From: Spirogloea muscicola
Lineage: Eukaryota
DNA: 58,368 bases
NCBI GenBank assembly: GCA_009602725.1
Contig: WELB01000028.1
Span: 427,545-485,912 of the forward strand
Reading direction: 5' to 3'
A model generated the notes under the pieces. It searched no databases. It had not been told where the DNA came from and was given only the letters and a program-made list of their open reading frames with translations. A program made the position numbers and the translations under genes. How positions within the stretch are numbered: position 1 is the first letter of the stretch; each line of letters opens with the position of its first letter. This document shows positions 8,549 through 58,368 of this stretch, piece after piece.

Positions 8549-9884
8549 TCAGCCACGGCGCATGAAGTCAAAGAGGCCGCGCTTCTGTGTCTCCTCCTCG
8601 AAGACGAACGCCTTGAGGCGGTCATTCTGGATGAGCCGGTATGCAGCCTGCTCCAGTGCGTAGCCCGCCACCGTGGGAGGCTTCTGCAATACCAGCGGCT
8701 CACCCCGGTTGCTGCTCATGATCACGCCCGAGTCCTCGGGGATGACGCCGAGCAGCGGCAGGCCGAGTGTGTCCTGCACATCCTGCACCGACATCATATC
8801 GTTGGAGCTGATGAGGTCGGGGCGGACGCGGTTGACGACGAGCTTGATGTCGGCAATCCCATCGACCTCGAGGAGGCCAATGACACGGTCGGCATCGCGC
8901 AGCGCGGTGACGTCGGGCGTTGTGACGATGATGGCCTCGTCAGCGGGCGCGACAGCAGTGATGAACCCTGCCTCTATCCCAGCGGGGCAGTCGATGAGAA
9001 TGAAATCAGGGCAGCCGTCAGGTTCAGGCCGCTCCTTGAGCGTGTCGACGAGCCACGTGAGGGCCTTGGTGCCGAAGTTGTACGGCATCTTGAACCGCGG
9101 CTTGGCGATGCACAGCAGCTCCAGGTTGGGGCACCGCCGGTCGCGGATCAGGGCCTGGTCCAGCCGGCACTCGCCTTCCATCACCTCCGCCGCCGTGAAC
9201 GTCACCCGCTTCTCCATGCCTGCGTGCATTCAGGTCACGGCCAATGGAACCGCCATCAGCACCGCAAGATGGCCTCTGAGGGCCTCAAACCTCCGATGCC
9301 GTCAATTGGGCTGTCTCGATCGGCTCAGCGCAGCCACACCGCTGGGCGCCCAGATACTGAAGCTGATAACCGATGACCCGTCAACCCTCAATGCTGTGCC
9401 GTCCCGAGAGCGACGGGATGAGGCCCAGGCGCTGACCGAGGAGGAGGTCCAGGTTGCGCAGGCCGATGTCGGCGTCGATCGCGACGACCTTGTAGCCCAT
9501 GCGTGCGATGGCGATGCCCAGGTTGGCCGTCGTCGTGGTCTTGCCCACACCGCCCTTGCCGCTGGTGATCACGGCGACGCGCGGCGGCGTGCCGCGCATC
9601 TGCGGCCGCTGGCCCCAGCTGAGAGCCGCTGTTGCCGCCGCCGCCGCCGCCCACCGGCCCCCCTTCCGTTGACGCGCCGCCGCCGTGACGGCCAGCAGCT
9701 CGGCCGCGGGCCGTCGCCATGGGCCCTCGGCGAGCTCGCTGCGGTCCCCCAGGAAGCCAACGCTGCGGCCAGGCGTCGCTAACGAGGCCGGGGCTGGTCG
9801 TACACAGCGGCCAGCCCCTGCTGCTGGTGCGCCGGCGGCTGTGGCGGCGGCATGGACGCAGTGAGCGCTCGCGGCGGCGGCCAT
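8549..9884 (-). CDS. minD: Plastid division ATPase MinD with transit peptide; exons 9884-9437 and 9219-8549
   Basis: Deviant Walker [63 protein letters not shown] and C-terminal KRGLFDF. Ala-rich N-terminus; GT-AG intron in phase. Confidence 0.95.
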
Positions 9885-10223
9885 GCCGCAGCGCCTCTGC
9901 GGCGCGCGGCACTCAGGCAGAGCGCGGGTGCGCCCGCCAGCNNNNNNNNNNNNNNNNNNNNNNNNNNNNNNNNNNNNNNNNNNNNNNNNNNNNNNNNNNN
10001 NNNNNNNNNNNNNNNNNNNNNNNNNNNNNNNNNNNNNNNNNNNNNNNNNNNNNNNNNNNNNNNNNNNNNNNNNNNNNNNNNNNNNNNNNNNNNNNNNNNN
10101 NNNNNNNNNNNNNNNNNNNNNNNNNNNNNNNNNNNNNNNNNNNNNNNNNNNNNNNNNNNNNNNNNNNNNNNNNNNNNNNNNNNNNNNNNNNNNNNNNNNN
10201 NNNNNNNNNNNNNNNNNNNNNNN

Positions 10224-13200
10224 GGCCGTCGCACCGCACCCCGCAGACGACTCCGGCCAGCGGCTGTCGCGCGAGTGCGGCTCCCGGCTCCGCGGGCGCG
10301 GCAGCGGCCGCGCCGCATGGCGGCCACGCCGGTGATCGCGGCGCCGCTAGCTGGCAATGGCTTCCAGGCCCAAGCGGCGGCGCATCGCGGCGAGCTCCCA
10401 GGCTTGGCAAGTCAGCTGCGCTCCCGGTGAGAGCCTTCTCCATCCAGTGCCATGGCCACCCGCGAGCCTTTCCTAAGCCTTTCCTAACCTTTCCCACGTA
10501 TGTCTGTGCCTTTCCGCGATTGCCGTGGCTGGGCTTGTTCATGGCCAACTTGGCTCACGCCTTAGTACTGCTGGCTCCTGCCGAGCGGCCTGCCGAGCCG
10601 CTCTTGCCCCATGACATTGTACTTAAGCATAACTCAATCACATAATACATCGTTCATGATGAATCTTAAGCATAACCTTCTCCCTTGGTGGTGGCGCGCT
10701 CGCAGGCGGGCCCGATGGCCGGCGCGGCCTCTACCACTGCAATTACTGCCAGAAGGACGTGTCTGGCACGGTGCGCATCAAGTGCGCAAAGTGCCCCGAC
10801 TTCGACCTCTGCCTCGAGTGCTTCTCCGTTGGCGCCGAGCTGAGCCCCCACAAGGCCTCCCACCCGTATCGCGTCATGGTGCGCCTCCTCCTCTCTACAC
10901 ATACCAGCTGCTGCTTGGGAGTTCCAAAGAGCGTCATATGACTGCTTTGCGGTCAAATGGCCGATCAGCTCGCAAATGCCAGGGGATCGTTGTTGGGGTA
11001 GCCTGTCATTGTTTACTGCATGCAGGACAACCTGAACTTCTCGCTGCTCCACCCAGACTGGGCGGCCGATGAGGAAATTCTACTTCTTGAGGTATGGGAT
11101 GCTCAGCACACCTTGCATACGTGATCCAGTTTCTCGTGCTCATTGTAGAAGCTGCGTACTCCAGCTTCGCTGCCCTTATGCACTGCCAGTTGAGCTGGGG
11201 GCAGTGGGCTTTGATTGGCAGGCCGTTGAGATGTTTGGGCTCGGGAACTGGGCAGAGGTGAGCGAGCACGTCGGCACCAAGGGCAAGGTGCAGTGCCAGG
11301 AGCACTTCACGGCAACCTACATGGACTCGCCCTGCTCGCCCCTCCCGGTGTGTGATCAGTTGCCTGCGTTGTCATATTGAAGGCATTATCAAATTCTCCA
11401 CCGACTCCAAGAATGCTACCCATGCAGCAGTGCTCATCATGCTGGCGGGCTGAATGGCATAACACATCTTTAACCTCCATGGAGGAGGCAGAAGCAGATC
11501 AGGCTTCTTCATCAGAGGTGTTGAAGCGAAACCTTGCTGTGTCCTCCCAGGACTTGTCTGGCGTCGTTGGGAAGAGCAAGGCGGAGCTTCTTGCTCTCGG
11601 TCGGCAAGGGAAGGACTGGCTGCCGGGTGAAAGCACGATCACCTGCATATGCGCCTACGAGCATTTGCTCATGCAATGACTAGATGAAGCAGGCCGTTTG
11701 CGTCATCCAATGTGCTTGACCAGCTTGATAAGGGCATTTCCTGACATATAAGAGTTATCCATTGCTATGTTCTGCTCCTGAAGGCCAAGCAGCCAATGCT
11801 GGTGGTGGGGGTGGCTTCTTACCTAAGGTGGAGGACACCTCTGAAGCTGCATTGAGGTAGGTGGTCCTTGGTGTGCCCGGTGCTCTTTCAGTGTCATGGC
11901 CAATAGCATCATGAGAAGGTCTGCTCCAAAGCCAGAGTGATCAGAGACTCATGACATGACCTGCAACAAAACACCGTGACAAATAGTCACAACAGTAATT
12001 CTCCTGCTTCTCACTGGTTCACCTGCTTCTGGTAGGCCACACCTGTTTCCGGCGCTTGATTGGCAGGTGTGTGGCACGTTTGCAGGGAGGAGCCGAGGGA
12101 GGAGCGGAGCGCAAGCCCCGAGTACCAGTCCAGCGGTGGGCGGCCCTGAGTCGTCTAGGCCCCTTGATGTACATCTGTCAATGTGCTTGCCTTTGTATTT
12201 GGCCACTCAGGCCCTCCATCACTCTATACACACTCCATGTCTTGCAGAACTGTGTACAGGGGTCCCCTGTCCGGACTTGGTGGCAACCCTCATTTCCATT
12301 TGATGTTTGGAAAGAAGTTCATCATCGGTGCTCATTGCTTTTGTGAACATGCGTCCAAGTGGCAGAAGGTAAAGAAGGACAGATGGCGGCCAAGAGCCGA
12401 GGAGCGTGGGGTGCCGCCACCGAAGGCGGCGAGGGTGGCGCGCGGGGCGCCAAGAAGTCAGCCGGCGGTGCCGGGGCCCTGGCGAAGAAGGAGGAGGACA
12501 AGGTTCCCACGCCTCCAACCGAAGGTGACGCTGCAAGGCAATACTGTGACAGCAGCCAACATTCTCCCTTTCTGCTCCAATTCTCCAACGTTCATTCTTC
12601 GGAGGACTGACCCACTTGGATTGTGCTGCATAGCCATTGCTTGCAGCAGTCCACAGGCGAGGGATCACAGTGGAGCTAGTAAATCTTACAGTTTGACTTG
12701 TCTACTCTGTGCTTCGATAATCATGTGTTTGGTTATTTTGATCTATGCTCAATTGCTATCACCTCTGACAAAGAATGTACTGCCGTTTATACAGAATCCA
12801 TGCAGAGTAACCGCACCATTGGTGGCAAGACGCCGTCGAAGCCACCCTTGCACACTGCCGAAGCTGCTGCAGGCCAGCAGCCAGCGTCCCACGACACTGG
12901 CTCTGGCGGGGGTGCGGACGGCCCCGAGCTCGCAGGCTACAATGCCAAGCGCGGCGAGTTTGACCCGGAGTATGACAATGAGGCGGAGCTGCCTTTGGCC
13001 GAGATGGAGTTCCGCGCTGACGAAGATGCTGACCGCGAGCTGAAGATCCGCATGCTCCACATCTACCGCTCTAGGTACACGCATATACTATCTGAATCTC
13101 TTGTAGGGCTGAAGTTACGAGCATCACATCATCCACTGATTACCGTGAGAGGACCTTGTAAGGAGCTTCTAAGAGGTCCACTAATATGCCATATTTCAGT

Positions 13201-14619
13201 GCTGCTGGGTAAGCGAGTCTATTTCCAACTAGTGATTTTCTGCAACCTGCCCGCTGACTGAGTCGCCTTTGGTGCTTGTTTGCTTGTCGAGGAGCAGGCT
13301 TGCGGAGAGGAGGAGGAGGAAGGAGTTCATCCTTGAGCGAGGCCTGCTGAGCCCCAGCAAGCGATTGCAGGTGCTGGACCGACGGAGGGGGGCCGGCAAC
13401 GGCATGAGCAAGGAGGCACAGGAGCTCTGGGCCCAGGCCCGCGTGTTCGCAAGGTACCACTCTCAGGCGTCCCATGAAGCGCTGGTCGCTGGCCTGATCG
13501 AGGAGCGTCGCCTGCGGCAGCAGATTGAGGAGCTGCAGGTACCACTGGCTCCTCTCTGAGTGTGGTGGTCACACAAGTGGTCACACATCATCCACTTGGC
13601 ATCAAGATGCCTCACTTTAACAGCCAGTACATAGACTACACTCATCAGCTTGCATCCTCAATGCCGCTGACGTGCCCAAAGACGAGACTGAACCAGATTG
13701 GTCGTTACAAACTGTGGACGCTTTTCCCAGACCTAGTCTGTAAGCCCTTCTTCTATCTTGACTACTCTGGTGCAGGAGCTGAGGGAGGCGGGGTGCCACG
13801 AGCTGGCAGAGGGTGCTGTGTATCTGGCCGAGAAACGACGGCAGGAGGCGGAGACGAGCCTGCGTAGGCAGCGGGAGAGCCCAGCAGCCCACCTCTATGG
13901 CGCAGCCGCTGCGTCTGCGGCAGCGGCGGCGGCAGCAGGGAGGGGCAGCAACCATCGCACCAACCGGCAAGGGGCCAGGGCGGCAGCCGCGGAAGGGGCT
14001 GACCACCACCCAGCCACGACGCTCAGCACCATGGATATCGACAGGTCACGCACTGGCGGGCTCGCCGGTACACCGGCGAGCCTGCTGGACGATACGGCTC
14101 TGGTCAAAATCTCCAAAAGCGACTCTAGGGGGCCGCTCAACCTCGACGGCCACCTCGGCCTCGACCTTCTGTCAGACAAGGCAAGCCGACACGGCCTGAG
14201 CTCGAGCAGGGCATGCTGTGTGCTGCGCGTCAAGCCCTATGGGTGCAGAGAGCTTTTCACAGCATGTGCTGGTAGTCCTCCGGTGTGCCACTGATTGCTG
14301 TGAAGGTCCTTTGCCTGATCTTTCTTTTGTGTCAATGTCACCTTAGGAGCGGCAGCTTTGCGCGACCACGCGCCTGCTCCCAGTGCACTATCTCAAGATG
14401 AAGGAGGTGCTCATGCTGGAGGCGCTGAAGCAGGGCGGCGGTGCACCACTGTCCCGGGCCGACAGTCGAAAGCTGTTCCGTGTCAGCCCCGCGCTGGTGG
14501 ACCGCGTCTACGACTTCCTGTGCTTGCAAAGCTGGATCAGCGGCGACTCCCTGCCAACTGAGGGCGCAGGCATTCAGAGTACCGGCAGCAGCCTGCTCCA
14601 TGGCAGCCCTCTCCGATAG
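10224..14619 (+). CDS. ADA2: Transcriptional adapter ADA2 (SAGA), multi-exon; start lies in or next to the N gap
   Basis: ZZ finger YHCNYCQKDVSGTVRIKCAKCPDFDLCLECFSVG; SANT DWAADEEILLLE/AVEMFGLGNWAEVSEHVGTK; GYNAKRGEFDPEYDNEAE; ERRRRKEFILERGLL; SWIRM LLSDK/ERQLC..HYLKMKE..VDRVYDFL; stop at 14619. Confidence 0.95.
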
Positions 14620-27606: not shown

Positions 27607-30415
27607 TCATGAGCCCCAAGTGGATACGTGCATGCAGCCGCGTTCATTCCATCCCAGCATCAGCGCATTGCCGTCCTGCGAAACCGCAAAGCGCTTGCTA
27701 TCGTTGTCGACGTACTCTGCCACCATTGCTCGCACCTCGTGCACCATGGCGGAGCTGAACGATCTGCAGCACAAATCACACCCACGCCAGCACAGCATCT
27801 CAGCACCGGAGCTGCGAGCCACCCGGCAGTCTACTGGTCACCTTCCGCAAACATCTTCCTATAAGGACATGTGCAGTGTACCTTGGTGTAAAGTGAGCGT
27901 CATCCAGGCGCTCGCGCCACTTGACCAGGGGCTCAGTGCGGCGGACGCGGTCAAGGCCTTCGCACGCAATGATGTTCATGATCTCCCGTCCAAACACGTG
28001 CTCTTCAAAGAGCTGCCGGCTGACACTGCCGCGTGGCATGCACGTGTCGATTGCATTCATGCCGCAGTAGTAGAACTCCACAGCCTGCGTACGTGCAGCC
28101 GAGCAGCCACGGCAAAGCATCAGCAGCCTTTGCAGGCCACACAAGTCAAGCTTGTGTGCTTCTGGAAATTGGCAGACAAAGGTGCTCCTGCTGCACAACT
28201 GATCTCTTAAGTCGACCAGCTGGCCAGGTTACTATAAGCTTGTGACGTACCCCTCGAAAGCGTTGGAGGAAGAAGGGGCAGTTGAAGTAGGTCTCCATCT
28301 CAGCAAGCGCCAGGACGCAAGGACGGAGGCACCGGAGCGCCCGCAGAGCAGCATTGCGGGGGTTGGAGCGAATGACGCTGGCGTCAGGCACGTTCTGCAG
28401 GCGCATGACCGCATTGATGGCAAGTGCCTCGCCAGCCTCGAGCTCGAGGAGCGCCGGTGTCAGGTCCTCGAACTTCGCCACCAGGACGGAGCACTCGAAT
28501 GGTATGCCGAGCTCCCGTGCCAGGTGCGCAAGCTGGGCGCCCAGCTGCCTGCAGTCACTGTTCCGCTCCTTGCCAAGCTGAGCTGCCTCTGCATCGGGTG
28601 GGTCCACGAATGTGATGCGAAGGCGCGGTGGGCCGCCAGGCCGCAGTGCCAGCGCGCGGAGTGCCGGCTGCCACTGGCTGCCCTGCACCCGCGCACGAGC
28701 ATCATGAGCGCACGCAATGAGCCGCAGCTCGTCAAGCGAAGCCCATCAGGCAATCCGTCGTCCGCGAGCATGCTGCTTGCTCTCATGGCTATGTTGAGCA
28801 GGGGCTGTGGGCTGCGCTGCAAACCTGCCACATGGAGATGTCCAGGATGTGCACCCGGCGCTCAGCTGCCACTGCCTCCAGGATCGCGCCATTGGCTGAC
28901 ATGATGCAGAACTTGATGAAGGGCAGCGCCTCCGCGAAGTCCTGGGAAGATGCCGCCATGTCCTAAAAGGCGACCCGCCCACATGCCAGCCGTAAACACG
29001 TCAATTTGACGCTTGACTACGGCAACAACGGTTAACACTCATGTGAGCTGTAGGTACCAGCAGATGTAAAGATAAACAGCGACAATATACCAAGCAAGTA
29101 ACACAAGCGCAATAAGAGTTCCGATTTTGCGCCACTTCTGAGACATGGACAACTTCCTGGTGCCTCAAGTTGGCAAGGTGGACCGATGGGGGTGCTGAAG
29201 GCTGGGAGGTGAGTGGTGCAGATTTGTGGAAGGAGGATCGAAACGATGGAGAAGGTCATACAGCAGTCACTGGGGGACAAACCTGGGGCCGAATACGGGA
29301 GGGCTGGCGGTACTGCACAAGGCCGAGGCCCTGCGTGCGTGCCCACAGGGCCTCCATGAAGTAGAAGGCGGCTCGCTGCGCAGGCGTGCCGGTGGGGGTC
29401 GCCTCGCGGCGCAGCGCAGAGTGCAGCAGGCGCGCGCGGGCATGGTCGCAGGTTGCCACCGCCTCGGCGAGCGACGCCAGCTGCTTCGCCAGCAGCGGCA
29501 CACTGGCTGAGAGGGTAGGTGCCACGGGCCAGCTCACAATGCGCGTCTTATCAACAGTGGCGGCAGTGACGGCTGCCACTGTCGGCGGTTGGCCCCAGGG
29601 GCCGCCCGGCCACTTGGAGAGCGTGGCCCCCACAGGTTTCGGCAGCAGCATGGCGGTGTTAAGCGACGTCAGGCTCCCCGGCGGGACCTGCGTCAGCCAG
29701 GGCTGCGGCCACGCAGCGAGGTCCCCGCGCAGCTTGACGCCACCGTCGCCAGAGTACGGGCGCTTGAGGAGCGCAGCGCCGTCGGCGGCTTTGGCGGGGT
29801 CCAAGCACGCACGGCCGCGCCGCACCACAATGTCCTTGGACGGGTCTGGCCAGCGCTTGCGCATGTCGACGAGCAGGCAGCGGACGCAGCTGCACCCCTC
29901 CTTGCAGCCCGGCCGCAGTCCTTCGCCGCCGCAGCGGTCGAAGCCGCCGCCGCCGTTGCCACCAACGACGGTTCTGGCGCCGGAAACGCCTGCCCTGCTG
30001 CCCTGCTCCACGGCCTCGCCCTCTCTGCCGCTCGACCTGCTGCCGACCCCACTGCCAATGCCGCTGCCGCTGCTGCCGCCGCTGCCGCTGCCGCTGCTTC
30101 CAGCGCCACCTGGCGGCACCGCGGTGGCGGTCTCGTCGCCAGAGCGCGCCGGCGAGCAAGAGAGCGGCTGCAGTGCGATGTCTGAGCCAGACGCCTCGCC
30201 GACCGACTCCGCCGCCACCGCCGCCGCCGCCGCCGCTGCCGCCGCCAGGTCGTCGGACGCTGCCATCCACTCCGGGATGCTCACTTCCTCCGCCGCCTGC
30301 GCCGTGATTGGCGCGTCCCACCAGTTGTCCTCCCCGACGCCGTTGTCACACAGGGCCCAGGGCTCGTCCGCAGGCCATGCCAGCAACGCCGAGTCGACAT
30401 CGTCGTCGTCGCCGT

Positions 30416-32127: not shown

Positions 32128-34835
32128 TCAGCATGCTGGTCGCCACAGAGTCGCGTGGATGAGCGGCTGCGACTTCCACTTGAGCATGAGCGCGTCGCCC
32201 TGCTCTGCCATGGAGAACCCCACATGCTGCTCCGCTACAGCCCTTGGTTGGTCCTTTGCTGCCTCGGACCAGGGCCTGTACATAAGATTGCAATGCAGCC
32301 TCAAATTGCGTTCTAAACCCAGGATATAAGCAGCAAGCGGGTCACAAACCTGCGTATATGAGACTCGTACATTGCCAGTCAGCAAGCTAAGCCAGCTGAC
32401 ACTTTTCTCCTGTCACTAATCTGTCCTCCTGTGCTTGCTAGTGACTCTGCAGCACTTCAACAATCAATCAAGCTCTTTCAAACTCCTACTGTATTAGGCA
32501 TGGATACTGCCTGACGCAGTGTGACTGCACATATTCAGCAGCAAGTGATTCTGACCACTGCACAGCTGGTTCTGCCTGGGTATGCTACGCAGCTGGGTCT
32601 GCCTGGATATGCAAACGTACTTGCCAACAAAGCCGGCGTCCTTCATGCGCAACTGCCACTTGCTCAGGTACTCGGTGCGCTTGTGCCGCAGTAGTCCCTC
32701 GCATGCAACCACCTCAAGGATGTGCTGAGACAAAATGTGCTGCTCAGCAACGCGCCGCCAGAGGCTTGTTGAGGGCATGTGCACGTCTGTTGCCTCAACG
32801 GCGGCCATGTAAATGTCCAAGCACTGCACACATAGTATCAGCACACCATTCTACTAAGAAGCTTGTTGAGTTTGCATGTGAGGTGTACACCCAGAGGTGA
32901 TGACAGCGTTGTTTTCAAGTTATCTGTCCACCTGCAGCTTGATAAACAGGAAATAAGCAGCATAGCAGAGCTGTGTGTTATTGGAGGCCGCAGTAGACCT
33001 GCTTGAAGCGCTGGAGGAAGAAGGGGCTGTTGTCATTGGAGTGCATCTCCACCAGGACCATGACATGCGGCCGCAGCCGACAGAGCGCCCGCAGCGCCGC
33101 ATCCCGAGGGCTGGACCGCAGGAGGCTTGCGTCTGGCAGGAAGCTGAGGCCCATGATATCATTGACGACCAGCACCTCACCATCCTCCGCGCCGATCATG
33201 TAGGGCTGCAGGCTCTCCAGCCGCGTCTCAATCACGTGAAATTCCAGCTGCACGCCCAAGGAGTTGGCAACTGCCAACACCTGCTTCCCGGACTCCCCGT
33301 CCTGGCTAAGGTACTGCTCATTGGCACACGTGTTCTCCATGATGCGGATGTGGCTATCGTGCACCCGAGTGATGCGCACATGGGGCGGGCCCCCCGGGAG
33401 GAGCGCCAGCGCATGCAGGAGCCCTGGCCACTGTCCTGTCTGCAACAGCAAGACGAGCATGGAGTGAGCAAGCTGAGTAGTGTGTACAGTCAGAGGGGCG
33501 GCCAGAGTAAGCAAGTCGACCGCCCATGTGCACTTTGTGTGCACTGCCAGAAGCTTGAGCGGCCTGGCACCTTCCTGCAGCTGGAGCTCAGGGTTCGGGA
33601 TTTGCAATGTAGGGCAATGGTTTGTGAGCTGCTCCTTTCCTTGTCGGCTTGATACACAATCCAGCGAGCGAGCACCGCGGCTGTCGGAGATGGCCAGGAG
33701 GACAAGGAGATGCTTACCCAAGTGGCTATGTCCAGGATGTGTATCTGCCGGCATGCAGCGGCCACCTCCAGGATGGTGGCATTGGCTACACCGTGGCAGA
33801 ACTTTATGTACGGCATGTGCTGCTGGAATTCCCCCATGGCACTGACCATTGGCTGCAGAGCGGCAGCGGCAGCGGGGGTGCGCGCAGTTGGCAAGCGAGC
33901 ATTGTATCATGCAATACAGTGAGAGCTTCGAAACAGAAAGGTCACAACAGCCAAGCCCTGGACACAATGGCCTTGCGTCGCTGCCAATTCTCCATGGCTG
34001 TGATCAACGCACATGCATGACGCCAGCTTCCTGGCGGCAAGGGGTTCACCTCGCTCATGCTCTCGGTTGCCAGGCGTTGCCGCCGGATGCACACCTCGCC
34101 CTGGGTGCGGGCCCAGAGCGCCTCCATGAAGTAGTAAGCGATGCGTTGGACGTAGGTGCCCGATCTGTCGGCGGCGCGGCCGAGGACGGTCATGAGGAAG
34201 CGGGCGCGCGCCTGGTCGTCAGTGGCGACGGCCTCGGCAAACGCCAGAAGCTGCTTCTTGATGCGGCTCTCCAGCGTGTCCACCGCCGCTGTCACCAGCT
34301 GCGCCGCCCTGACGGCGGCCGACGGCCGCTTCTGCAGAGGACCGCTGCGGGCGCCGAGCACCGAGTGGAGGCGCCGCGTCGTCGCCTTGGCAACGCCCGT
34401 CAGGCTGGTCAGCGACAAAACCTCCCGGAACGGCGGGTCCAGCAGGCCGTACAGTTGTGGCACTGGAGGCGCCGACGCATACCCCCGCCGCACCGCCAGC
34501 ATGCGGCCTAAAGAAGGCGCGACGACGCCGCCGCCGCCGCCGCCCGCCTTGCCGTCGAGGTCCCAGCAGGCCGGGCTGCTGAGCGGCGAGCGACTGACCA
34601 TGGCATCATCATGGTCATCTTGCAGCCAGGCCAACGGCTCGCCGACGGCGGCGGCGGCGGCGGCGGCGGCGGGCGGGCTGGGGAAAGCGCGGGGCTCGAA
34701 TATTCGGCGGCGGGTGGCGCCGTCCGCCGAGTATCTTCCGCACTGTGCTTCGGGGCGGGGGGTCCCCGTGATCGAAACCGTGGCCGAATGCAGCGCCGCG
34801 GCGCCGCCGGCCTGGTGATCAGAATGTGCGACCAA
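32128..34835 (-). CDS. GRAS-family transcription factor, copy 2; exons about 34835-34050, 33852-33718, 33439-32999, 32823-32621, 32275-32128
   Basis: LLAFAEAVAT..GTYVQRIAYYFMEALWAR, PYIKF..ANATILE..QIHILD, QWPGLLHALALLPGGPPHVRIT, SPRDAAL..NSPFFLQRF, VVACEG..RTE...W and LMLKW..ATLW. Start codon uncertain. Confidence 0.92.
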
Positions 34836-44500: not shown

Positions 44501-44652
44501 GCCTCCTCCCCGCCGCTTCATCCGTAAGGCTCCGCCGTCCGCATTCACAAACCCCGGCTCAATTCTCGCCTCCCTCAATCCTTCTCCCTCCAGCGCCGCT
44601 CTCCCCGCCGCCTCCGCCGCCGCCCCCGCCGCCGCCACGCCCGCCATCCGCC

Positions 44653-46280
44653 ATGGCGGCCCTCTCCGCCGCCAGCCTCGTCGCCGCCCCCGCGGCGGCC
44701 TCCTCGTTCCTCTCCGGCAACCAGAAGGTACTTCACCGACCCTTTGCCCGCTTGTGCCTCTCCCCTTTGGCTCCAGGGGCCCCCAGTGCGAGCACGCCTC
44801 CATTACATGATGCAGTGCGGCCATTTCAGAAGAAAAGGCCTCGAGGGGCAAGGCTCTCAGGTTGGATGTCATATATCGTCAAGCACAATTCGTGAACACT
44901 GGCTCTGTTAGTTAGAGCATTGTGGAAGTTGCGCAATGAGAAACCAGTTTAACGAACTAGTGTGACACAAATTTAACATGTGTTGCTGCAGACTCTCCGC
45001 GTGAGGCAAGTGAAGCCGCAGGTGGGACCGCTCAGGACGTTTGTCCCCATTCGTGCTGAAGTGAGGACAGGAAGTGACCCGGTAAGTAGTCAAGTTCAAT
45101 GACTTTGACGAATTTAAGTATTGGCTGTCAGCTTCAAAGAGCTTCCGAGTTGTGGGAGACGTTGTGCTTGTAGGTCACATTCTATGTAATGTCTCTGATG
45201 CATATCGTCTGTGCAACAATTGCAGGGCGGCATTGGAGATAAGTTGAAGAATGCTGCTGAGAAGGTGGCCGAGACTGTGGATGATGCAACTTCTGGACTG
45301 AAGGACGCCCTTTCCGACGCCCGTGGCACAATTAGGGAGTGAGTTATCGCAACTACATACCTCCTTTCGGTCCAGCTGAGAATTGGGTCCTGCTCACTCC
45401 TCCTCAAGAGTGGCTGCATTGGTTGCTTGTCACTGGGACAGGTCGAGATTGGTAAGACTCCCCAGTTCCAACTTTGGCTAACTGTATTAAGTGGGACCAC
45501 GAGCTGAAAGCTACCTGTAAGATAATGTGGTGACCAAACGAGCTGACTTAGGTGGTGCGGCCATGTCGGTGATCCTCAGTGAGGGGACTGGAAAGCCTAG
45601 GAATCAGATAACAGCCGCATTAGGTGATGCGGCCAAGGCGGCGATCATTGGCAAGGCAACTCAAGAAATCCGCAAACGCATAGGAGCTGAAGTAGGTGGT
45701 GCAGCCATGTCGGAGGTTGTGAAACGGGCAAGTGGAGCGATTGGAAATCGCTTAAAATCTGAAGTAGGTGGGACAAGTGGAGCAGTTGTGGACCGCTTGA
45801 AATCTGAAGTGGGTGATGCAATAATGTCGGTGATTAACAGTGAGGCAACTGGGAAGATCAGCGATCGTGTCTCTGGTGGCAAGGGTGAGGTTCGTGAGGT
45901 GACCATCGGGAGCAAGGAGAAGGACCCTAGCAGTTTGGCTGCTAATCTGGCAGTAAGTCGACTGGCCAGACTGTAGTTGCTCCTGTAATACACCGTATGT
46001 TGCACCTGTAACAGACTTGCGAATCTTTGTTGCCAATTGGTCAGACTGAGTATGCTTATACGGTTGAGCATACTAACTATGGTTTGCCATTGACTTGTCA
46101 TGACTTGTCACTTGTGCTGTGCAGCAACAAGTTCAAGGAGCTGTAGAGAGTGTTACCGACAAGTTGACAGGTGCAGAGAATGCAACCCGGGGCTTTGATG
46201 ACCCTAACCAAAAGGGTGCCTTCACAACCCCCAACAGGGAAGCCAAGAAGCAAGCATGGGGTGACAAGCAGGCTCCTTAA
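44653..46280 (+). CDS. Putative plastid-targeted LEA-like hydrophilic protein; exons 44653-44727, 44992-45081, 45226-45338, about 45580-45953, 46125-46280
   Basis: Ala/Ser-rich N-terminus MAALSAASLVAAP..FVPIRA (transit-peptide-like). Then GIGDKLKNAAEKVAETVDDATSGLKDA and VQGAVESVTDKLTG. GT-AG borders; exon 4 acceptor uncertain. Confidence 0.65.
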
Positions 46281-47189
46281 GCTTGTATACCTAGTGAATG
46301 TGAGTGGCATTACCTGCCCAGCTTTTGACATTTCTCAGGAGATTTTGTAAACTGTACATTATCAAGCCCTTCAGGACGGCTTGAGCAGAAGGCCAATCAG
46401 TCTCGATTGGCTGGCTCTGGCACTTTGGATTTTGATCATTTGATTTTCTATATGAAGTATTGATGTGCTTTAACTTAGAAAAGCTGGATCTCGATCTTGC
46501 AAATGTTGGAACATACCACGTACTTACCGTAAAGTTTCTTACCAGTAAATATATGTGAGCGCTTTAAAACATGCAGTGTAGGAGGTTATGAACCTGCACA
46601 GATATGTTGAATGTCCAAGACTTGGGCATATTCTTGAGGTGGAATGATTGTTTGTAAATATTGATGTGAAGTGGCAATAATTGTTGCTGCCACTGCGTTT
46701 CACTGTTAGGAAGAGCAGAGCTGTAATAGACCATAACCACTTGAGTGTAGCAGGTCAAGTTCTGCCCTACTACACTCAGGTGGGTTTGATGGAGCACATT
46801 GGTAAACAATCTAGATAAGCTTGTTCAGATCTTTGCATTGCAATGAAGTAGCCAAAAGTTTTTCAAAACTGAGCAACCGCCATGAATAAGCCAGCCAGCT
46901 ACTCACTCGGTCTAGTAACTACACCTGCAGCTAAGATAGGTGCTGAGAAGGTGCATGTGAAACATGACATGTTCTCATTTTCGTTCTCAGCATGTTAGTA
47001 GCAACAATACTGACATCTGTAGTACTTGGATATTTGTGTATTGAAGTGTGACTTTGACATACTAAACAGTGACAAACGCTCCTTGATTATCAGCAACACC
47101 ATCAATGGCAGGTTAATCTTATGAAACCTGTGGATCATGAGGTTACAATTATGCGAAATGCATAAAATGTGAGATCTACGAAGGGGGGA

Positions 47190-47930: not shown

Positions 47931-48477
47931 GCGTGCAGCAATCTGTTGATAAGCTAAACTAATACTAAAGCTTGGAGATTACAACTGAATAGTCAGGACA
48001 CAATTGGGGTAAGCCTATTTACAAATCAATCTGCGGCAAACGTTGTAAACGCCTTCGCTGGGAGTAGTTCAGCGTTTTCTGGCCCCTTCAGAATTGGTTT
48101 AAGTTTCCATTACTATTCTTTCTGTGTTTCGTCTGGGTGACTCTTTTCCAGCTGCAAGTTACTGACTCGGGATGAATAAGCTTCAATATGCTATTGTCAC
48201 TTGCATAGCTGTGTGCGTTTGGCGCCTTTCAGCCCTTCGGACCTTGTCCATTTTCTGGGCAATGCCGCCCTCGTGATTTATACCTTTGCAGAGTCACAGT
48301 CTGTACACAGCATCTGCACCTGAGTGTGCGACAAATTGTATTGTGTTCGAAGATTGATAAAGTGATGCCAGAATAGGTGTGACGGCTGAGAGAGATAGAG
48401 CCCTGATATAGTGACACTGATTGACATCATCAATAGCAGCGGCAGTGGCCTGCCTGACCTTGTTCATTCCTTCGGGC

Positions 48478-48565
48478 TCACGCAGTCCACACGGGCACCG
48501 GCCGCGCTATGGCTGCTGCCTCAGGGTCTCGGCTGAGTGCTTCTTTCCCAGCTTCGAGTTATTCG
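48478..48565 (+). mobile_element. Short CRE-like subfamily A fragment
   Basis: Similar to 40750-40840. Stops at cttcgagttattc. Confidence 0.6.
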
Positions 48566-49530
48566 AAGAAAGGGCTCGCCCATAGAAAAAGAGGGGCTAG
48601 CAAAGCCAGCCCAGAAAAGAATGAACAATGTCCGCAGGCCTCAAGGGCCACAAAACATGCCCGGAAAGACTGAACTACACACCAAGACACGAAATGTTGC
48701 AGATGGATGCTCAGTAGCCACGAGTGAGCAACAGGAAATCAGAATAACTCGAAGCAGGAAAGGCGGCACTCTGCCGAGACCCTGAGGCAGCAGCCATAGC
48801 GCGGCCAGCGCGCGTGTTGAACGCATGAGCCAAAGAGCGCTGGAGCGAGACCGCCAGCCGCCAGCTGATTCGAAATACCTGAGCAAGGGAGCCGGCAGCA
48901 TTGAAGCCGGGCGAACCCGGCCGCCGCTCGATGGCCTGCCGGGCAAGCCGCTGGAGGAGATCCAACTAGCCGCTGCCGAAGGCCCCGTGAACGTCAATGG
49001 CCAGGGCCGCGAAGTCATCGCCTGGAGGGTGGTCAGCATACTTGCGCTCCTTACTCCGAGCCGCCAAAGCGACCGCGTGCCCAGCGAGCGTCGCCGACTT
49101 CGCGGGGTTGGCGGCGTCGACGCAATCTGCAGTCACCACACCTGCGATGATACTGGACCTCCGCCGGGCGGGATGGCAACTAAGGCAGCGCGTCGGGTGT
49201 GAAGCAGTCTGTCGGCGCCCCGCTGGATGGGCACGATTGTCGTATATTCCACTGCCACCTTGTAGCCGGCCTTCAGGAACACACCCTGCATGGCGTCGCG
49301 CTGGAGGTCGTGTGTACCGGTCCGCTTGCCCCCGTGCGCGCAGCGGAGCATATGGGCAGCCAGCGCCGCAGGGTCATCGTGGCGGGCACCGCACTCGCAC
49401 TGTTGGACCCCGACGAGGCAGGGAGGGAGGAGGCCCAGGAGCCGGTGGACCGCCGTCCTGAAAACCTCGTCGGGTACTGTGAGCGCCGCGTAGATTGGGA
49501 GCGCTGATGACCACGCCGCTGGCCCGGGGT
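48566..49530 (-). mobile_element. 5'-truncated, frameshifted CRE-like element (subfamily A)
   Basis: FRTAVHRLLGL..CECG..HMLRC..RTGTHD..RRAAL and SLQRSLAH..SDFLLLTRGY*. UTR closely similar to 40870-41015. Confidence 0.88.
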
Positions 49531-49630
49531 AATGAATGCGGCTGCTGATATTAAAAGAGCGGCTGTGAAAGCCAGCCAGATGCATACAGGTGATCTTGAC
49601 GGAGCCACAGGCTAGGCAGACAGGGCGCTC

Positions 49631-51200
49631 TTAGTACCCCCGGGTCAGCAGGAGGAAGTCAGATGAGCTGAGGGGAGGAAGAGCAACCCCGCTGCGCAAG
49701 CCAGAGGCTGCTGCAAGGGCGCGACCGGCGCAGCGGTGCAAAGCAAGCGCTTGGGAGCGCTGGAGGGACATAGACAATCGCATGCGGTAGCAGGACACAA
49801 GACCCAAAGGCACCGAGCCTCCAGGAAGTGCTGCACCCTGTTCCCGGCGCCGCTGGTCAGCTTGAGATGCCAGCAGCGAAAGTAACGAGGACCACCGACT
49901 CCCGCAACACCCGTGGATGTCCAGGGGGTAGAAGGTATCACCCACCGGGTGGTCCTTGTACTTGTGCAACTTCTTCTGTTCGGCCACCTTCACGGCATAG
50001 CCGGTCTCAGGAATAATGGGGCCCTTCTTCCGGAAGCTGTCGGTGAGAACGACGTCCATGAGGAGCCGCTTGACCTCCCAGGGGGACGCCAACCAGATCG
50101 ACACGCCTCGTCCGAGGGACCCCGTTGCGAAGTTGGACGGGCATCACCCCGGTGCTCTCCTACGCCACTTGATATCTCGCCTCCTTGACGATGCCATACA
50201 TCGCATCCCGTAGGAGGTTGTGGGAGCCCGTGCGCTCACTGCCGTTGGCACACCTGAGCATGTGGTCACCCATGAGCAATGCATCATGCTCGATAAGCCC
50301 ACATTCACCTTGGGTCACCCCTGCCAAGCACAGGGATGGTAAGCCAAGACGGCGGCGCATAGCATCGCAGAACAAAGCATTTTCAATCCGCAAGCCCGCA
50401 TGCAAAGGCAAGGCGCGGAGCCACTCAGACGCTCCCAGAGACGAAACAGATAGGAGCCGAGCCTGGCTCGAGCATCTCCTTGGAGGAGACTCCGGCGATG
50501 CTCCGGTGGTTGCTCGTCTGCAGCAAGGGGAAACCGCGATTGAGCCTTAACAACAGAAACGTCAGCCCAGGCAGCAAAACTAAGAGGCTCGTTTACCAGA
50601 GGCGGGCATGCGGCAAAGAGGTCCTGTTGGCATGCTTTGAGAGTCACTTGGAAAGGCAGACTCCCCTGCACCACGTTACTGATGTGAGGCGCCAATACAC
50701 GTTGTTGCCCAAGGAGGAATCGTCCAGATATGGACGAAGCCACCTGAGCCCAGAAGCCAAGGTACGCTGGTCTGCACAAGCGGACCAAGGGGCGACAACC
50801 AAGCCCACCGTGACATATGGGCAGCGTACACTGCACCAGTGCTGCTGGAGACTGCTCTAGGAGTGGGTGAGCAATCTTGTCAGCAAGGCATCGTTGGAGC
50901 TTGACATTGATGGATGCATAGACCTCATCTATGGTAACCGAAGGTGGGACCGTTCTTAGGAGGAAACACGGCCGCTGTGCCACACTCCTGGTCAAAATGG
51001 CCACTGCCAACTGAGAGTCCTCGAGGGTGGGGAGCTCTGGCAGGACCTGCATGTATCTTGGAGACGAGCAAGGACAGCACCCTCCGAGAAAGACGGGTCC
51101 CCCACAGGCACTCCCAAGATCCTCAAGCCACCCTCTGGAGTCTGACAAGGTGTAGGCAACGAGGAAAGGAGGGAAAGAGGGATGCCATTGGGGGACCAGG
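49631..51200 (-). mobile_element. Longest CRE-like remnant: end of RT/thumb, zinc knuckle and RLE, frameshifted
   Basis: GLRILGVPVG, FLLRTVPP, QCTLPICHGGLG..PAYLG, RRRLGLP, DHMLRC, DVVLTD, AEQKKLHKY and RLSMSLQRSQA..SDFLLLTRGY*. Confidence 0.88.
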
Positions 51201-51329
51201 CAGAGCACTTGGCAGTACTTATCCCAAGCCCGATGAGCTGGAGCTGGTGCTGAAGCGTGCCGAAAGGAGGCGGCGAGGATCCGGGCGCGCCCTCGAAGGT
51301 CGTGCGGCGGGAGGACCTCCACCACCTGA

Positions 51330-51500
51330 TCACTATTACTCTCACTTGCTGTTGCTCACCCGTGGATACTGAGCTCCATCTGCATCATTCCGTGTCCAGT
51401 TGTGTAGTTTTCCCTTTCTGGCACCGTTTTGTGGCCTTTGGATGTTGGCCATATTTTTCTGGGCTGGCTTTGCTAGCCCCTCTTTTCCTATGGGCGAGCA
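51330..51500 (+). mobile_element. CRE-like subfamily A ORF end plus UTR
   Basis: YSHLLLLTRGY* followed by the subfamily A UTR and stem-loop. Confidence 0.75.
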
Positions 51501-52299
51501 ATGTCTTCGGTCTGGCCTCCCATAGCCATTCTTACATTGAAAGATCTGTTCCTCTATTCCTGACTTAAAGGGCCGAAAGGCGCCATAACCACACAATTGC
51601 GCAAGAGACTACAGCGAATGGGAGCTTAATGACCCCGAGTCAGCAGCCGCAAGTCGGAGTAACTTGCCAGTGGAGGTGTTGAAGGTGGCATAGCCCGTTA
51701 AGCCCCAACACTTGGCACACAGCTGCAACGGCGGTTTCGCCTGCACGTGAACCTGTGCCCCCGCTGATCGAGACACCCCCGCCCGAGTAACCGCCACTGT
51801 TACACTTGGCTACGACGCTAACCGACAGTTATCAGGGGGGGGGGGGGGGGGGGGGCCCAAAAAAGGGGGGGGGGGGGGGGGGGGGGGGGNNNNNNNNNNN
51901 NNNNNNNNNNNNNNNNNNNNNNNNNNNNNNNNNNNNNNNNNNNNNNNNNNNNNNNNNNNNNNNNNNNNNNNNNNNNNNNNNNNNNNNNNNNNNNNNNNNN
52001 NNNNNNNNNNNNNNNNNNNNNNNNNNNNNNNNNNNNNNNNNNNNNNNNNNNNNNNNNNNNNNNNNNNNNNNNNNNNNNNNNNNNNNNNNNNNNNNNNNNN
52101 NNNNNNNNNNNNNNNNNNNNNNNNNNNNNNNNNNNNNNNNNNNNNNNNNNNNNNNNNNNNNNNNNNNNNNNNNNNNNNNNNNNNNNNNNNNNNNNNNNNN
52201 NNNNNNNNNNNNNNNNNNNNNNNNNNNNNNNNNNNNNNNNNNNNNNNNNNNNNNNNNNNNNNNNNNNNNNNNNNNNNNNNNNNNNNNNNNNNNNNNNNN

Positions 52300-52313
52300 C
52301 GCGCCCAGGAGTT

Positions 52314-52359
<46 letters not shown>

Positions 52360-54297
52360 TCCGTCGGCGCCTCGGCTGTCGAGGTGAAGTCCCGACGAAG
52401 TTCTGAGTTGGGTCCTCGTGACGGGCGCTGCAGCTTTGCCGGCAGTGCAGCCGGCTGCGCCGCCAATCTGCCGTCTCCGCCAGCTGACCATCGTGGGCTG
52501 GCTGCGACGGCGCGCCGCGAGCAGGCGCACTGGCTGCAATTCACGCTGCAGCAGATCGACGCCAAGCTGTCGCGGCTGGAGGCGACGGTGCAGCACGTCG
52601 CGGAGCAGGCCGCCGCTGCTGCGTCGGCCGCCAACTTCGCCGTCGTCACCGCCAACGCGCTGCTCAACACCGTGGGCCTGCGCCTCAACCCTCAGAACGG
52701 CGGCCTTGCCAACCCGGCGACGGTAGCTGGCGGAGCGGTCGGCCGGGATCACCACCACGACATGATGGGGGAGCACAATGCCGCCGGCCCGGGGCGGCAG
52801 TCGGACGCGCCCGGCGGCAGCGGCGGCAGCGTGCATGTGCTGCCGCACTTCCTCGGCCTGGCCCTGCAGAACCAGGGCGTGCTGCCTACTGTCGCAGCCA
52901 TGGGCAGCGGGGAGGCGGTGGTGCAGCCCCTGCTGGTGCACGGCGGAGGCGGTCCGGAGACGGACGACACCGGCACCGGCAGTGGCGGCGACGACGGCGG
53001 CGGCGGCGGCCTCGAGGGCACCGCCACGACAGAGCCGCACGGAAGCTTCCGCCGGCCCCGCAAGCGCGGCAAGGTCCACCGCAAGTCCGAGGGCGATGGC
53101 CTCGCCGGCGGCGACGTCAACAACGTGGTCGCCCAGTCGCTGCTCGACCACCACCAGCACCACCACCACGGCGACGGTGCTGGCGGCGGCGGCAGCGGCG
53201 ACGGCGGCAACATCGCCCGGCATCTGGCCATCGAACCCGCCATCGCTGCCAGTCCACAGCCTGTAGCCGCAGTTGGGAAGGCTCGTGGCACTCAGAGCTG
53301 GGTGTGGGGCGGCAAGCACTGGCCCGAGGGCATCGACAAGTTCCTCCTCAATCCTGACCCCCAGACTATTCACGGTTAGTCACTCTCGGAATCACACCTT
53401 CATTTCTCATAACAGGACATAAGTGCAGGCCTTCTGTGATCACTGACCACTCCATCGCCACCTGGGCTGCCTTTCACTGGGGTGTACTTTACAGCCACAG
53501 CTTGCTGTTTGGTGAGGTCCTCCTCCTCCAGGACTGACTCTGCTGTGTCGGGTTGTTCCCTGTCGCTGCAGAGGTGTGGAGCGAGTACATGCATTGCGGG
53601 CCAGACGGTAAGCCGCCGTTGGCAGCTATCCAGTACCGATACGGCAAGCGGTGGGTGCCGATGCCCAACACCAAAGCTGGCAAGAATTGCCGCAAGCACC
53701 TGTGGTCTGCCAGGTTAGCTGGCACCTCCTCGTCCCTTCAGCTTGCTGGACCATTGCCACGTGTAGTGCTGGCCCTGCTCGCCATGCTGAGAAAATCGGC
53801 CATCATGAGCGCACGCCCTTCGCGGCAGCTTCATCTGCTGGCCCTGATGCAAGGCTCGCAGTTGGGGTACTTTGGGCTTGCTGCCTAACTGCAAAGATTG
53901 TATGCTGGGCCACTGTGCGAGCCTCTATTAAGTAAGCGCAAGAGGGAGCGGAAGGAGGGCGTGGTCTTGTGACACTCGCAAACGGCACTTTGTGAGCACC
54001 TGTATTCACATGGACGTCCTGGATTGATCCCTCCACCCTGCTGGAGCCTGGCGCAGGAATGAGTGGATCATCCTGGAGTTTTATGCGAAGCTCGGGGAGC
54101 GGGCGCAGCAGGCCAACGTACAGGCGCGCGTGCTGCAGGAGATGGAGGACAGGCGCAAGGAGTGCAAGAGCCTCGCCAAGTACCGCGACCAGGTGCGGGA
54201 CGAGTTTAAGCTCAACCTCGAGCGGCGCCACAATGCGAAGCAGCGCATGATCCAGGCCCGGCAAGACCTCGGCATATCACTGCAGTACCACGCCTGA
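52300..54297 (+). CDS. Protein with coiled coil, Gly/His-rich linker and C-terminal GCR1_C-like DNA-binding domain; exons up to 53374, 53572-53713, 54057-54297; start probably in gap
   Basis: Spliced product FLLNPDPQTIH|EVWSEYMHCGPDGKPPLAAIQYRYGKRW..RKHLWSA|RNEWIILEF..VLQEMEDRR..SLAK resembles the GCR1_C pattern. Both introns are GT-AG and in phase. Confidence 0.7.
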
Positions 54298-55032
54298 GTC
54301 TCACTCGGACCTTCCTCCATCCTTCCTCTCTACCTCACTCCTCCTCAATGTCCATCCCCTGTCTCCTCAGCTCGACAAGGCAGTGTCAGGTGGTGCCCGC
54401 CCACCTCATCCGCCACATAGCTGCCGGTGTTGACTGGCATGTCATCGTCACATCCCGGCGTGCTGAGCACCTCTGCTATCTGCCAGATGAGGCGAACCCT
54501 TGCCGCCACGGATAGATCAGCTGGTCGATCCTTGAGTCTGGATGTAGCAATAAGCATTAACAGGAAAAGCGCCTCCCAGAGTGAGCCTTCTGAAATGACA
54601 GCGGCCTACATTGGTACTGCGCCATCAACCCCATCTGATTCCAGAGGCGACCAAGGGCAAGTCAATAACAGTCATCAGCATTGTGAAGCAGTGCCGCGCT
54701 GCAGACCGAGCACCTGAGCAGCTCCAGCTTCAGTAGGCAGCACGACTTTCTGATAGTGCAGGGGCAGCAACAGGCTGCTGGGAGCCAGCTTGAAGGCAGT
54801 GGCGTCGCTAAGGAGGGGCTGCCTAAAACGGCAACCTGACCAGTGCCTGCACAGCCAGAGGACACAGCCGTCCTACTTGCTTGGTGGACAACCGGCAGCA
54901 ATGCCTTCAAAGAACATCGTGAAATCCAGGACCAGCAAGGTATTCCGCACAGACGCTCACTTCCGTGCAGGCAAAATGGCACACCACCTACCTTCTGCTC
55001 AGACAGGCATGATCGTAAGGATGCGGGCTACT

Positions 55033-58000
55033 TCATCCAGCGAGATTGATCGTGTAGGAGATGTACGGGTGGAGCTCAGCCTCGCCGCCCAACAAGCTAG
55101 CCATGCCCGCATCATCCGTGCCCTTCCAGAACGAGCTGGACAGAGACCCTCCCAAGCTGGTCAGACTATATTCACTAGCTTACGCTCAAGCATAAAGGAA
55201 TAAGCATCAGTATCAAAGTATGAGCATTGCGGCCATCTACATCAAGTTGAGGCACAGACTGCAAGTAGCACATGGTGCTGCCTGCAATGTCAACAGACAA
55301 CCATAAGTTCCACCAAGCTCACAATGTCAGACGATCAATATCATCCTTGCCATGCTTGTTAAGAGCTGCAAGTACCTGCTCACACTGCTGCTGAGGTTGT
55401 CAAGGGCCTGTCGCAGCTTCTTCTCGCTCCTGGGGTCTGGCGCCAGCACCGTGGACTGCCACAGCATAACGCACATAGCTTTAAGGCTGGGTCCCATTGG
55501 GTTAAGTCAGAGCAAGTTCCACTCGGCAAGACATTCACAACAAGGACGCAGGTGGTTGTCTACGACATTTAAGCCGGTCTTGGCAGATTGCCTGTGGCAC
55601 TGGCGCATTTGCCGCTTCTGGCAGAGCTCTACAGTGTATGCCAAAAAGGAGGGCATCTGTAAGGCTGTAAACTTTACCAAGTATTGGGGCGGAAGACCAT
55701 ATCTTAGGATGCTCTCTGCAAACACTCGGATAGCAGCCATGTGCACCCAGGAAGAGAAGACCTGCGCGGCATAGCAACGTGCACGCGTAAACAAGGATAT
55801 TCGGAGCAGAAGATACGATATCAGCTCTTGCATAACAGAGCTTGCTCAATTCAGGATAATTCCTGCTGCAAGTCAGGAGCCATCCAGCTCTCAAAGAGGG
55901 GAGTAGCATTCATCGCAAGAATGTCATTGCAAGAAGCTGTGAGCAAGGCAGGCCACCCTTCTCACCTCGCCGTAGCTGGCATGGCACCACTGTATGAGTA
56001 GGGACCGCATGCTCTCCTGATCCTCCGTGAGCCGCTCCAGGTCCTCCTGCCGCTGCTTCTGTGAGGCTGGGTCGTGCTCCGCCTCCCTGACCTGCAGACC
56101 GAGTGACGCATTGTTGCGGTTCGTTTATACAAAGACCCTCGTTGCAGGAGCTTTTGCAACACAGGCACGAGCAAAGTGGAGGCAGCATCTCAGCAGTGCC
56201 ATGCCTGTGATACTTGAGCCAGTGGCGGACATTCCGATGAAGACTAGAGGTGCGCGGGCATACCTGAAAGCCTTGCTCTCGGCAGCTCGTCCGGAATGTG
56301 TCTGCCACTTTATGAAAGAGCGTGACAGTGAAGAGGCTGTACTCGTTGTCGTCACATACCTTCTTCGAGGACCTGGGGACCTGGTAAACAGTGGTGCGAG
56401 CTTACGGGCAGCTGATTGCAAAGACAGGCAAAGCCCCTGGTGTGCCTCTTCCCGTATTCGAGCTGGCAGTAAGGGCCAGCCCATGAACTCGTGAAAACGC
56501 AGTACAAGAGGAACTCAAATGCGTGACGAAATCTGGCCTCCAAATACAAGCCGAGCGGGTGAATGCTTACCACAAAGTTGGACAAAGTCTCATACTTAGC
56601 AAGCCACTCCTTCTCGCTGTACTTGGGCACAATGATCAGCAGTGTCGTCAGATGCTCCGATTGGATGATGTCATTGGGGTCAACGACAGTTGAGAGGTCC
56701 CGCACCGCCATGCTGTTCCACAAGCCTGCATGCGTCAGTCATCTTGAACCCCAATTGCTGACATCAGAAAGCAAGCACTTCCTGCTGCACCCAGAAGTTG
56801 GCATGGCTGGTTGCTCATCGTGCTTTCGCTGCTACCAGCTCTGGTGAGGGCTTGGTCTTGACGGGATCACCTGCCGCCAGCCTTGCGAGTGATGGTGTTA
56901 AGTTGGGACCGTACTGTGTTGTATTCGGCAGCCCGAATCTGTGCACGAGCCCCAGACTTAGAAGCCTCAGGCTCTGACTGGAACACCTCGTGAAGACATC
57001 GTTCAGCACTGTGCCTCAGAGGCCTAAACCAGCATCGGTGCCAACATCAGGGGTCGGACGAGCACTACCTTGAGGTCGTCCTCCAACTTGGCGACGCTCT
57101 CGTGGATCGTCTCCACTGTCTCGCGCAGCGAGTTCATCACAGGGTACTTGGCCTCATCCCACGCGAACCTGCAATAAGCTCTCTGGTGGCAATTTAGTGC
57201 CTCTGCGTTTCCAAGATGCAGAGGCCCAAATGAAGTCAAATGCGGGAAGCCAAGGTGGCAGCCAAGAAGAGAGCTTGTGCGAAGTGAGGGAGAGAAGCTG
57301 GCCGGGTGGCATCCTGCTCCAAAGCTACCTGGTGAGGTACGACTCGATGGGCACGCCGTCAACTGAGAGCGTGCCGGGCTCCACACCGGCAGCCTTCTCC
57401 ATGTCCTCCAGCTGACGCCGGATCTTGTGCACCACAGCCTCCACAAAGTTGTTGTTCTGCGGAAGAAAACCCCATACGCCGCCCGCCCCCAGCAACATAA
57501 GCCTGAGCGGCGGCACAGACGCGGGGGCGCAGGAGGGCCTGGGCATTCCAGGGGGGGCAGGCGCGGCGACGACGGAGGCTGGAGCTTGCAGCGCAGAGCA
57601 CCTTGACGAGGTCGTCGCTGAGCGCGAGTAAGGAGTCCAGAGTGCCAATGCGCAGCTCGGGGATGTGGAACTGCCACAGGCACGGCCGAGGCGTATCCGA
57701 GTCGCCGTCAGCGGCGGCTCCCTTTGTGCAACATGCACGGCGACATTGCTAGCTCTGTCGGCCGGCCTTGGCATGGAGCGACGGGGAGACGTGGAGCCTC
57801 CAATCAGTGCGCGGCCACACTCGACGGACGGCGCAGCTCGAGCTGCATACCAGCGACGGCTCTGCCATGGTCCAGCTGACCAATCCCCAACGGCACAGGC
57901 AAACCAGCACGCAGGCGGGCTGCAGCAGCGCCAGCTAGAGGCGCAGCAGCAGTGGCGGCGGCAATAGCGGAGGCGACGGCAACGGCGGCAGCGGCGGCGG

Positions 58001-58143
58001 GTGCGGCAAAGGCGGCAATGGCGTGCCTTGAAGATCTGCGTCTCGAAGGAGAGCTTGGCGAGCTTGTCCTGCGCGGCGGCCCAGGTGGCCTCCCGGCCGC
58101 CGCCCTGCAGCGGCAGCGAGACGAGCCAGTACACGCTCGGCAT
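55033..58143 (-). CDS. VHA-C: V-type proton ATPase subunit C, multi-exon
   Basis: YWLVSLP, FHIPELRIGTLDSLLALSDDL, FAWDEAKYP, AEYNTVRSQL, VRDL..SEHLTTLL, VPRSSKK, VFSSWVH..IRVFAESILRYGLPP and HPYISYTINL. Confidence 0.96.
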
Positions 58144-58368
58144 CTGCCAAGCGGCGCAGCAGAGGGGGTGTGAGCGTCAGCCGGCCATCAGACGCGCCTC
58201 CGCCGCCGCCACTGCCGCCGCCGGCATGGGAGGCGCGATCGCTTGGCGAGCGCGGCGGGCCGAAGGCTCCCGGCGCGGGTCTGCGGACCTCGCCAGCGCC
58301 ACAGGGGCCGTGATCCACACCGCGCTGCCCTCGGCGCCTCAGCCGCCGCTTCCGCCGCCGCCGCCGCC

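Follow-up and report, generated by a model that had tools for sequence, protein, structure and literature searches.

The window analyzed here, a 58,368-nt stretch of Spirogloea muscicola DNA, contains a spliced plus-strand gene whose product ends in a GCR1_C domain. Its visible exons (52300-53374, 53572-53713, and 54057-54297) are joined at GT..AG borders into a single open frame of 485 codons and a stop codon; the alternative two frames of the joined exons contain 5 and 7 stops. Third-position GC amounts to 0.84 in the exons versus 0.54-0.58 in the introns of this gene. Splicing was seen in a contig of run X1 (a single run, the kind of which was guessed as RNA); none of the runs listed for this sequence is registered as RNA. 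This contig omits exactly the 197 and 343 bases of the two introns, with GT..AG at the ends of each. It differs from the window in 12 letters and may derive from a paralog. Two contigs showed 0 differences to the window (52523-52770 and 54258-54428), and contigs of both paralogs were found in the run. Since a window-identical contig spans a stretch where the paralog differs, the window copy is likely transcribed. No X1 contig covered the stretch 52300-52521.

The first-pass annotation had described an intact frame of three exons. The open frame and the splicing were borne out, but there are probably four or more exons, and the start of the gene probably lies inside an assembly gap (Table 1). 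The fourth exon follows from a comparison with the paralog P0001, the gene model of which (N-terminus unverified) is without exactly the 47 codons of 52384-52524, while a window-identical contig starts at 52523. Thus, these codons probably represent an additional in-frame intron.

Table 1. Features of the 58,368-nt window
Feature	Position	Strand	Evidence or remark
MinD/ParA-like gene	8549-9912	-	
ADA2-like gene	12683-13261	+	
GRAS-domain gene	28146-28745	-	Pfam above cut-off; neighboring pair with the next
GRAS-domain gene	32978-34003	-	Pfam above cut-off
Spliced gene	44650-46550	+	Strong contig cover; no Pfam match
Repeat-rich stretch within the preceding gene	45521-45976		Probably alternative or intronic
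Frameshifted repeat	48160-51650		Upstream of the gap; ends are imperfect inverted repeats (76-85%); no Pfam match
Assembly gap, 410 N	51890-52299	.	Follows a poly-G run; likely contains the start codon
Upstream coding exon, visible end, poly-Gly	52300-52383	+	Matches P0001 residues 25-43
Probable in-frame intron, 141 nt, GT..AG	52384-52524	+	Inferred; absent in the P0001 model; contig start 52523; no joint seen
Large coding exon: coiled coil, Gly/Ala/His-rich linker, basic cluster, GCR1_C start	52525-53374	+	Frame, P0001 alignment, contigs
Coiled coil, predicted, leucine-zipper-like	52525-52608	+	Heptad score 0.78 (simple script); identical in both paralogs
Basic cluster RRPRKRGK	53050-53073	+	Sequence
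His tract	53149-53169	+	Sequence
GCR1_C domain, two introns inside	53344-54162	+	PF12550 on P0001 residues 316-375; built profile on spliced residues 349-441
Intron, 197 nt, phase 1, Glu codon	53375-53571	+	Spliced contig; column and phase as in L001
Coding exon, GCR1_C core, 142 nt (L001: 145 nt)	53572-53713	+	Pfam, L001 alignment
Intron, 343 nt, phase 2, Arg codon	53714-54056	+	Spliced contig; column and phase as in L001
Final coding exon: GCR1_C end, basic helical tail, stop	54057-54297	+	Frame, structure model, profile
Likely 3' UTR	54298-54428	+	One window-identical and one diverged contig
VHA-C-like (V-ATPase subunit C) multi-exon gene	55300-58176	-	Downstream, convergent with the GCR1_C gene; weak match on one exon, remainder read by eye

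We take the frameshifted repeat upstream of the gap to be retroelement-like, by its reverse-transcriptase and zinc-knuckle motifs. Inverted ends would be unusual in a non-LTR element. Pieces related to this repeat lie at 40.0-43.6 kb, 35.4-36.3 kb, and 0.1-0.6 kb, and many variant contigs of it occur in run X1.

The coiled coil, the motif RRPRKRGK, and the His tract were found where the first-pass annotation had placed them. RRPRKRGK is presumably an NLS-like motif. A homodimer prediction for the coil scored 0.09. For the C-terminal domain, which the first-pass annotation had called GCR1_C-like, it had proposed an HMM search and a structure prediction. Window exon 2 alone scored 18.7-20 bits against Pfam GCR1_C (PF12550), under the cut-off of 23 bits. 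P0001, which is identical to the window product over the domain, scored 31.1 bits (E = 2.9e-7) as its sole Pfam match, and it is through this paralog that the window gene is assigned to the family. Scored with a profile built from 83 GCR1_C repeat domains, which is partly circular because the domains were retrieved with P0001, the spliced window product reached 29.4 bits, compared with at most 9.6 bits for 500 shuffles (451 scored).

The structure model of the C-terminal 158 residues was all-helical (pLDDT 77, pTM 0.75). Foldseek returned nothing for this model at E 0.001 in the PDB or the viral library, and sequence searches of the PDB gave nothing significant. The best VIA-align match, the moss LEAFY DNA-binding domain (Z 4.0, rmsd 4.5, 100 aligned), was tied with unrelated rows and is not meaningful. 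In an Atlas search with the C-terminal part, the top two clusters scored 0.90 and 0.89, with GCR1_C in 33% and 65% of their members, which we regard as a lead only.

P0001 comprises 452 aa, is labeled Spirogloea muscicola SM000076S21859, and shares 97% of the aligned residues with the window product (415/428). Word-index protein searches gave nothing besides it. The 13 amino-acid differences over the 428 aligned positions spare the last 160 residues entirely (P = 0.002). Among the contigs, all 10 coding differences listed for the last 160 codons leave the residue unchanged (P = 1.7e-7 if neutral, with a pS of about 0.10). In the linker, three of the four listed differences change the residue, and these replacements agree with P0001. 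The counts take in listed differences; 4 of the 12 in the spliced contig are unlisted and unclassified. Judged by these substitutions, the window gene is under purifying selection. P0001 also has no recombinase match in Pfam, in agreement with the earlier description of a gene without a visible recombinase. The copies observed are one in the window and one paralog in the protein collection; the contigs shown evidently comprise two variants. According to PMC11604088, which cites Cheng et al. 2019, the genome of S. muscicola was recently triplicated. As such an event would account for the gene pair, the window gene and P0001 are likely homoeologs.

A HMMER search of 1.84 billion representatives yielded 28 matches at E 0.001, P0001 included. 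All 27 others carry GCR1_C, 21 with two to five tandem domains and six with one, and none gave a recombinase match in Pfam at E 0.01. The 21 multi-repeat proteins (among P0002-P0026) possibly constitute a separate domesticated family. P0012 is a hypothetical protein of Myrmecia bisecta (KAK9815687.1; UniRef "GCR1-like domain-containing protein") with 27% identity over most of the C-terminal query. Like the window gene, it has a single GCR1_C domain of the same type, a similar helical tail, and no recombinase. Unlike the window gene, it is annotated with 195 aa and is without a clear coil. None of the 28 matches was an ortholog named from a land plant or a further streptophyte (an organism was named for 1 of the 20 others looked up). 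An alignment search of proteins of 491-2000 aa, which is weak evidence, found nothing among 7992 candidates.

A matching gene was detected in another alga. A metagenome scan with four single-domain proteins gave one locus, L001, from 296 candidates; another metagenome scan gave none from 74, and locus scans of viral contigs gave none from 31, 6, and 258 candidate stretches. The L001 contig contains no N, and no recombinase was found on it. The gene lies between PIG-V and Usp, with its first ATG 392 nt past the PIG-V stop. Its model, with splice sites hand-picked without RNA support, is open and has 8 exons with GT..AG borders and 447-459 aa. The layout is that of the window gene: coil, basic motif, His run, linker, GCR1_C, and helical tail. 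Moreover, both GCR1_C introns of the window gene occupy the identical alignment column and phase in L001. The chance of both coincidences is 2.6e-5 for uniform placement and 6.7e-4 if placement is restricted to sites between G and a purine. The core of L001 is 59% identical to the Myrmecia protein versus 41% to the window. By sequence, L001 probably belongs to a chlorophyte alga, probably distant from S. muscicola. Its neighbors PIG-V, Usp, and Utp14 differ from VHA-C in the window, which is uninformative at that distance.

Traces of the two introns appeared in further relatives. P0022 and P0023 align solely between both intron sites, and P0018 and P0028 end at the second site, which suggests that these four share the window introns. 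The first site is read through in P0018, P0027, and P0028, and both sites are read through in P0027. We also computed a quick tree of 92 of the 94 cut domains. This tree is unrooted, includes no reference Crypton or yeast gene, excludes the cluster duplicates P0029-P0033, and is composed of domains retrieved with the window query. Nine single-domain rows made up one side of a branch with SH-aLRT 90. Within this group, the window gene, P0018, P0028, and the L001/Myrmecia branch formed a polytomy. The window domain shares 37-41% identity with each of its relatives, and the Crypton-like P0028 is no exception. At its start, P0028 has the motif found at the end of the recombinase region in the CryptonF alignment (PMC3212892, supplement 3), a match made by visual inspection and with a pattern devised once the motif had been noticed; a coil-like stretch and then GCR1_C follow. 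It gave no recombinase match in Pfam, and its N-terminus had no usable Atlas match. Probably, P0028 is the terminal part of a CryptonF protein.

With a probability of roughly 0.6, we propose that the window gene is the domesticated 3' half of a CryptonF that lost its recombinase, and that it is now a host gene for a predicted nuclear DNA-binding transcription regulator. Import into the nucleus would depend on the basic cluster, and the pairing of two copies, or contact with a partner, on the N-terminal coil. The linker, rich in Gly and His, would serve as a flexible effector segment, and the helical GCR1_C domain would recognize a short DNA sequence in promoters in the manner of yeast Gcr1. 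The gene is best read as a member of a small green-algal family sharing two intron sites, not as a one-off fungal import. Because P0028 has the CryptonF motif and CryptonF is known and active in Chlamydomonas, e.g., CryptonF-1_cRei (PMC9977147), a Crypton of the green lineage would be the simplest donor, and a transfer from fungi is unneeded. Of the earlier proposal, support was obtained for a recombinase-free GCR1_C gene, which is under selection, and for a link to CryptonF via P0028. An independent domestication confined to S. muscicola found no support in that form, since the recombinase-free L001 has both introns and the Myrmecia bisecta protein falls into the group.

A more far-reaching version of the proposal is tentative. 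If CryptonF was domesticated just once, ahead of the chlorophyte-streptophyte split, this could have given rise to a green transcription factor family, characterized by the coil, GCR1_C, and two diagnostic introns, that survives in scattered algae including zygnematophytes and was lost in land plants. The lack, among the matches, of named orthologs from other streptophytes or land plants and the uniform 37-41% identity of the window domain to all relatives argue against one ancient origin.

The domain and its constraint would equally fit a domesticated gene with a structural or defensive role, which represses transposition at Crypton ends or binds centromere or repeat DNA like Cbf2/Ndc10. Cbf2 is described as a centromere protein of Crypton origin (PMC3212892), and a green alga has active CryptonF (PMC9977147). 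However, Cbf2 keeps a recombinase-derived body that is missing from the window protein, and the combination of a coil, a low-complexity linker, and a C-terminal domain fits the zipper-plus-DNA-binding layout described for Gcr1 (PMC7826247). We consider such a role unlikely.

It is improbable that the locus is a truncated or non-autonomous CryptonF, with the recombinase hidden in the gap or severed by the adjacent retroelement, and with conservation that reflects recent transposon activity. The repeat immediately upstream of the gap and the close Crypton-like relative P0028 are compatible with this explanation, gap sizes are estimates, and active transposon genes are also under selection. However, a recombinase domain is too large for 410 nt. 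Pfam detected no tyrosine recombinase in the upstream frames scanned (25 + 3 frames, a selection), and the end-of-recombinase motif was absent from the six frames of the window. For the window frames scanned, this agrees with the first-pass annotation, in which no tyrosine recombinase was visible. P0001 has just 24 residues before the first ones visible in the window, so a fused recombinase is not probable; these residues had no convincing counterpart in the window. A recombinase fused upstream of GCR1_C, as in CryptonF, was found neither in P0001 and the gap-free L001 nor, the 410 N aside, in the window frames scanned. In addition, contigs are few on the gene (22, versus 328 on 7.9 kb upstream).

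Still less probable is the reverse direction, according to which the GCR1_C regulators go back to an old family of host genes, CryptonF captured their domain, and the window gene never was a transposon. The 27 recombinase-free relatives, most of them multi-domain, would be in line with this, as would a tree with neither a root nor a reference Crypton. On the other hand, the occurrence of the family is patchy, the Crypton-like P0028 lies within the single-domain group, and Kojima and Jurka derive the domain from Cryptons (PMC3212892). Finally, a horizontal acquisition, raised in the first-pass annotation, would here mean the recent import of a Gcr1/Hot1/Msn1-like gene from fungi. This is compatible with a Pfam family described from fungi and with multi-repeat proteins of unknown origin at the top of the summed-score ranking, but it is very improbable given the green alga M. 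bisecta among the best single-domain relatives, the introns common to the window gene and the algal-type contig L001, the CryptonF already present in Chlamydomonas, and the high GC3 and short GT..AG introns, which suggest long residence.

Domestication of a Crypton into a regulator is already known from yeasts; the proposed green-algal case, with intron evidence for a wider family, is new. In the literature searched, the scope of which left out most subscription journals and bioRxiv supplements, we found no report of a green-algal GCR1_C family or Crypton domestication. If true, a recombinase-free GCR1_C family with conserved introns in two probably distant algae would give the green lineage a further DNA-binding family, and two kingdoms would each have made the same transposon part into one kind of regulator. 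A single origin before the split would make it a green parallel to yeast Gcr1/Hot1/Msn1. As the source of the window appears to be a zygnematophyte, the gene bears on the question of which regulators existed or disappeared around the time land plants arose.

The window gene resembles CryptonF in its C-terminal GCR1_C domain, CryptonF-1_cRei being compared by its description (PMC9977147). Unlike in CryptonF, no tyrosine recombinase was found in the frames scanned, and the copies observed gave no hint of a high copy number. Kojima and Jurka (2011, PMC3212892) name Gcr1, Hot1, Msn1, Cbf2/Ndc10, and Cdg1 as Crypton-derived yeast genes, argue that the GCR1_C domain came from Cryptons, and describe Crypton domestications in yeasts and animals. 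The yeast genes belong to Saccharomycotina, whereas the window gene belongs to a green alga. Gcr1 and Cbf2 retain a recombinase-derived remnant, which the window gene does not have, and the two family-specific introns and the basic helical tail further distinguish it from the yeast genes; orthology is not claimed. What it has in common with them is that a host gene retains GCR1_C while an active recombinase is missing. Like genes of the Gcr1/Hot1/Msn1 kind, the window gene is intact, apparently expressed, and recombinase-free, with substitutions that indicate purifying selection. The likeness extends to the layout of Gcr1, in which a leucine zipper dimerizes and the C-terminal domain is described as binding DNA (PMC7826247): in both genes, a zipper-like coil lies upstream of this domain.
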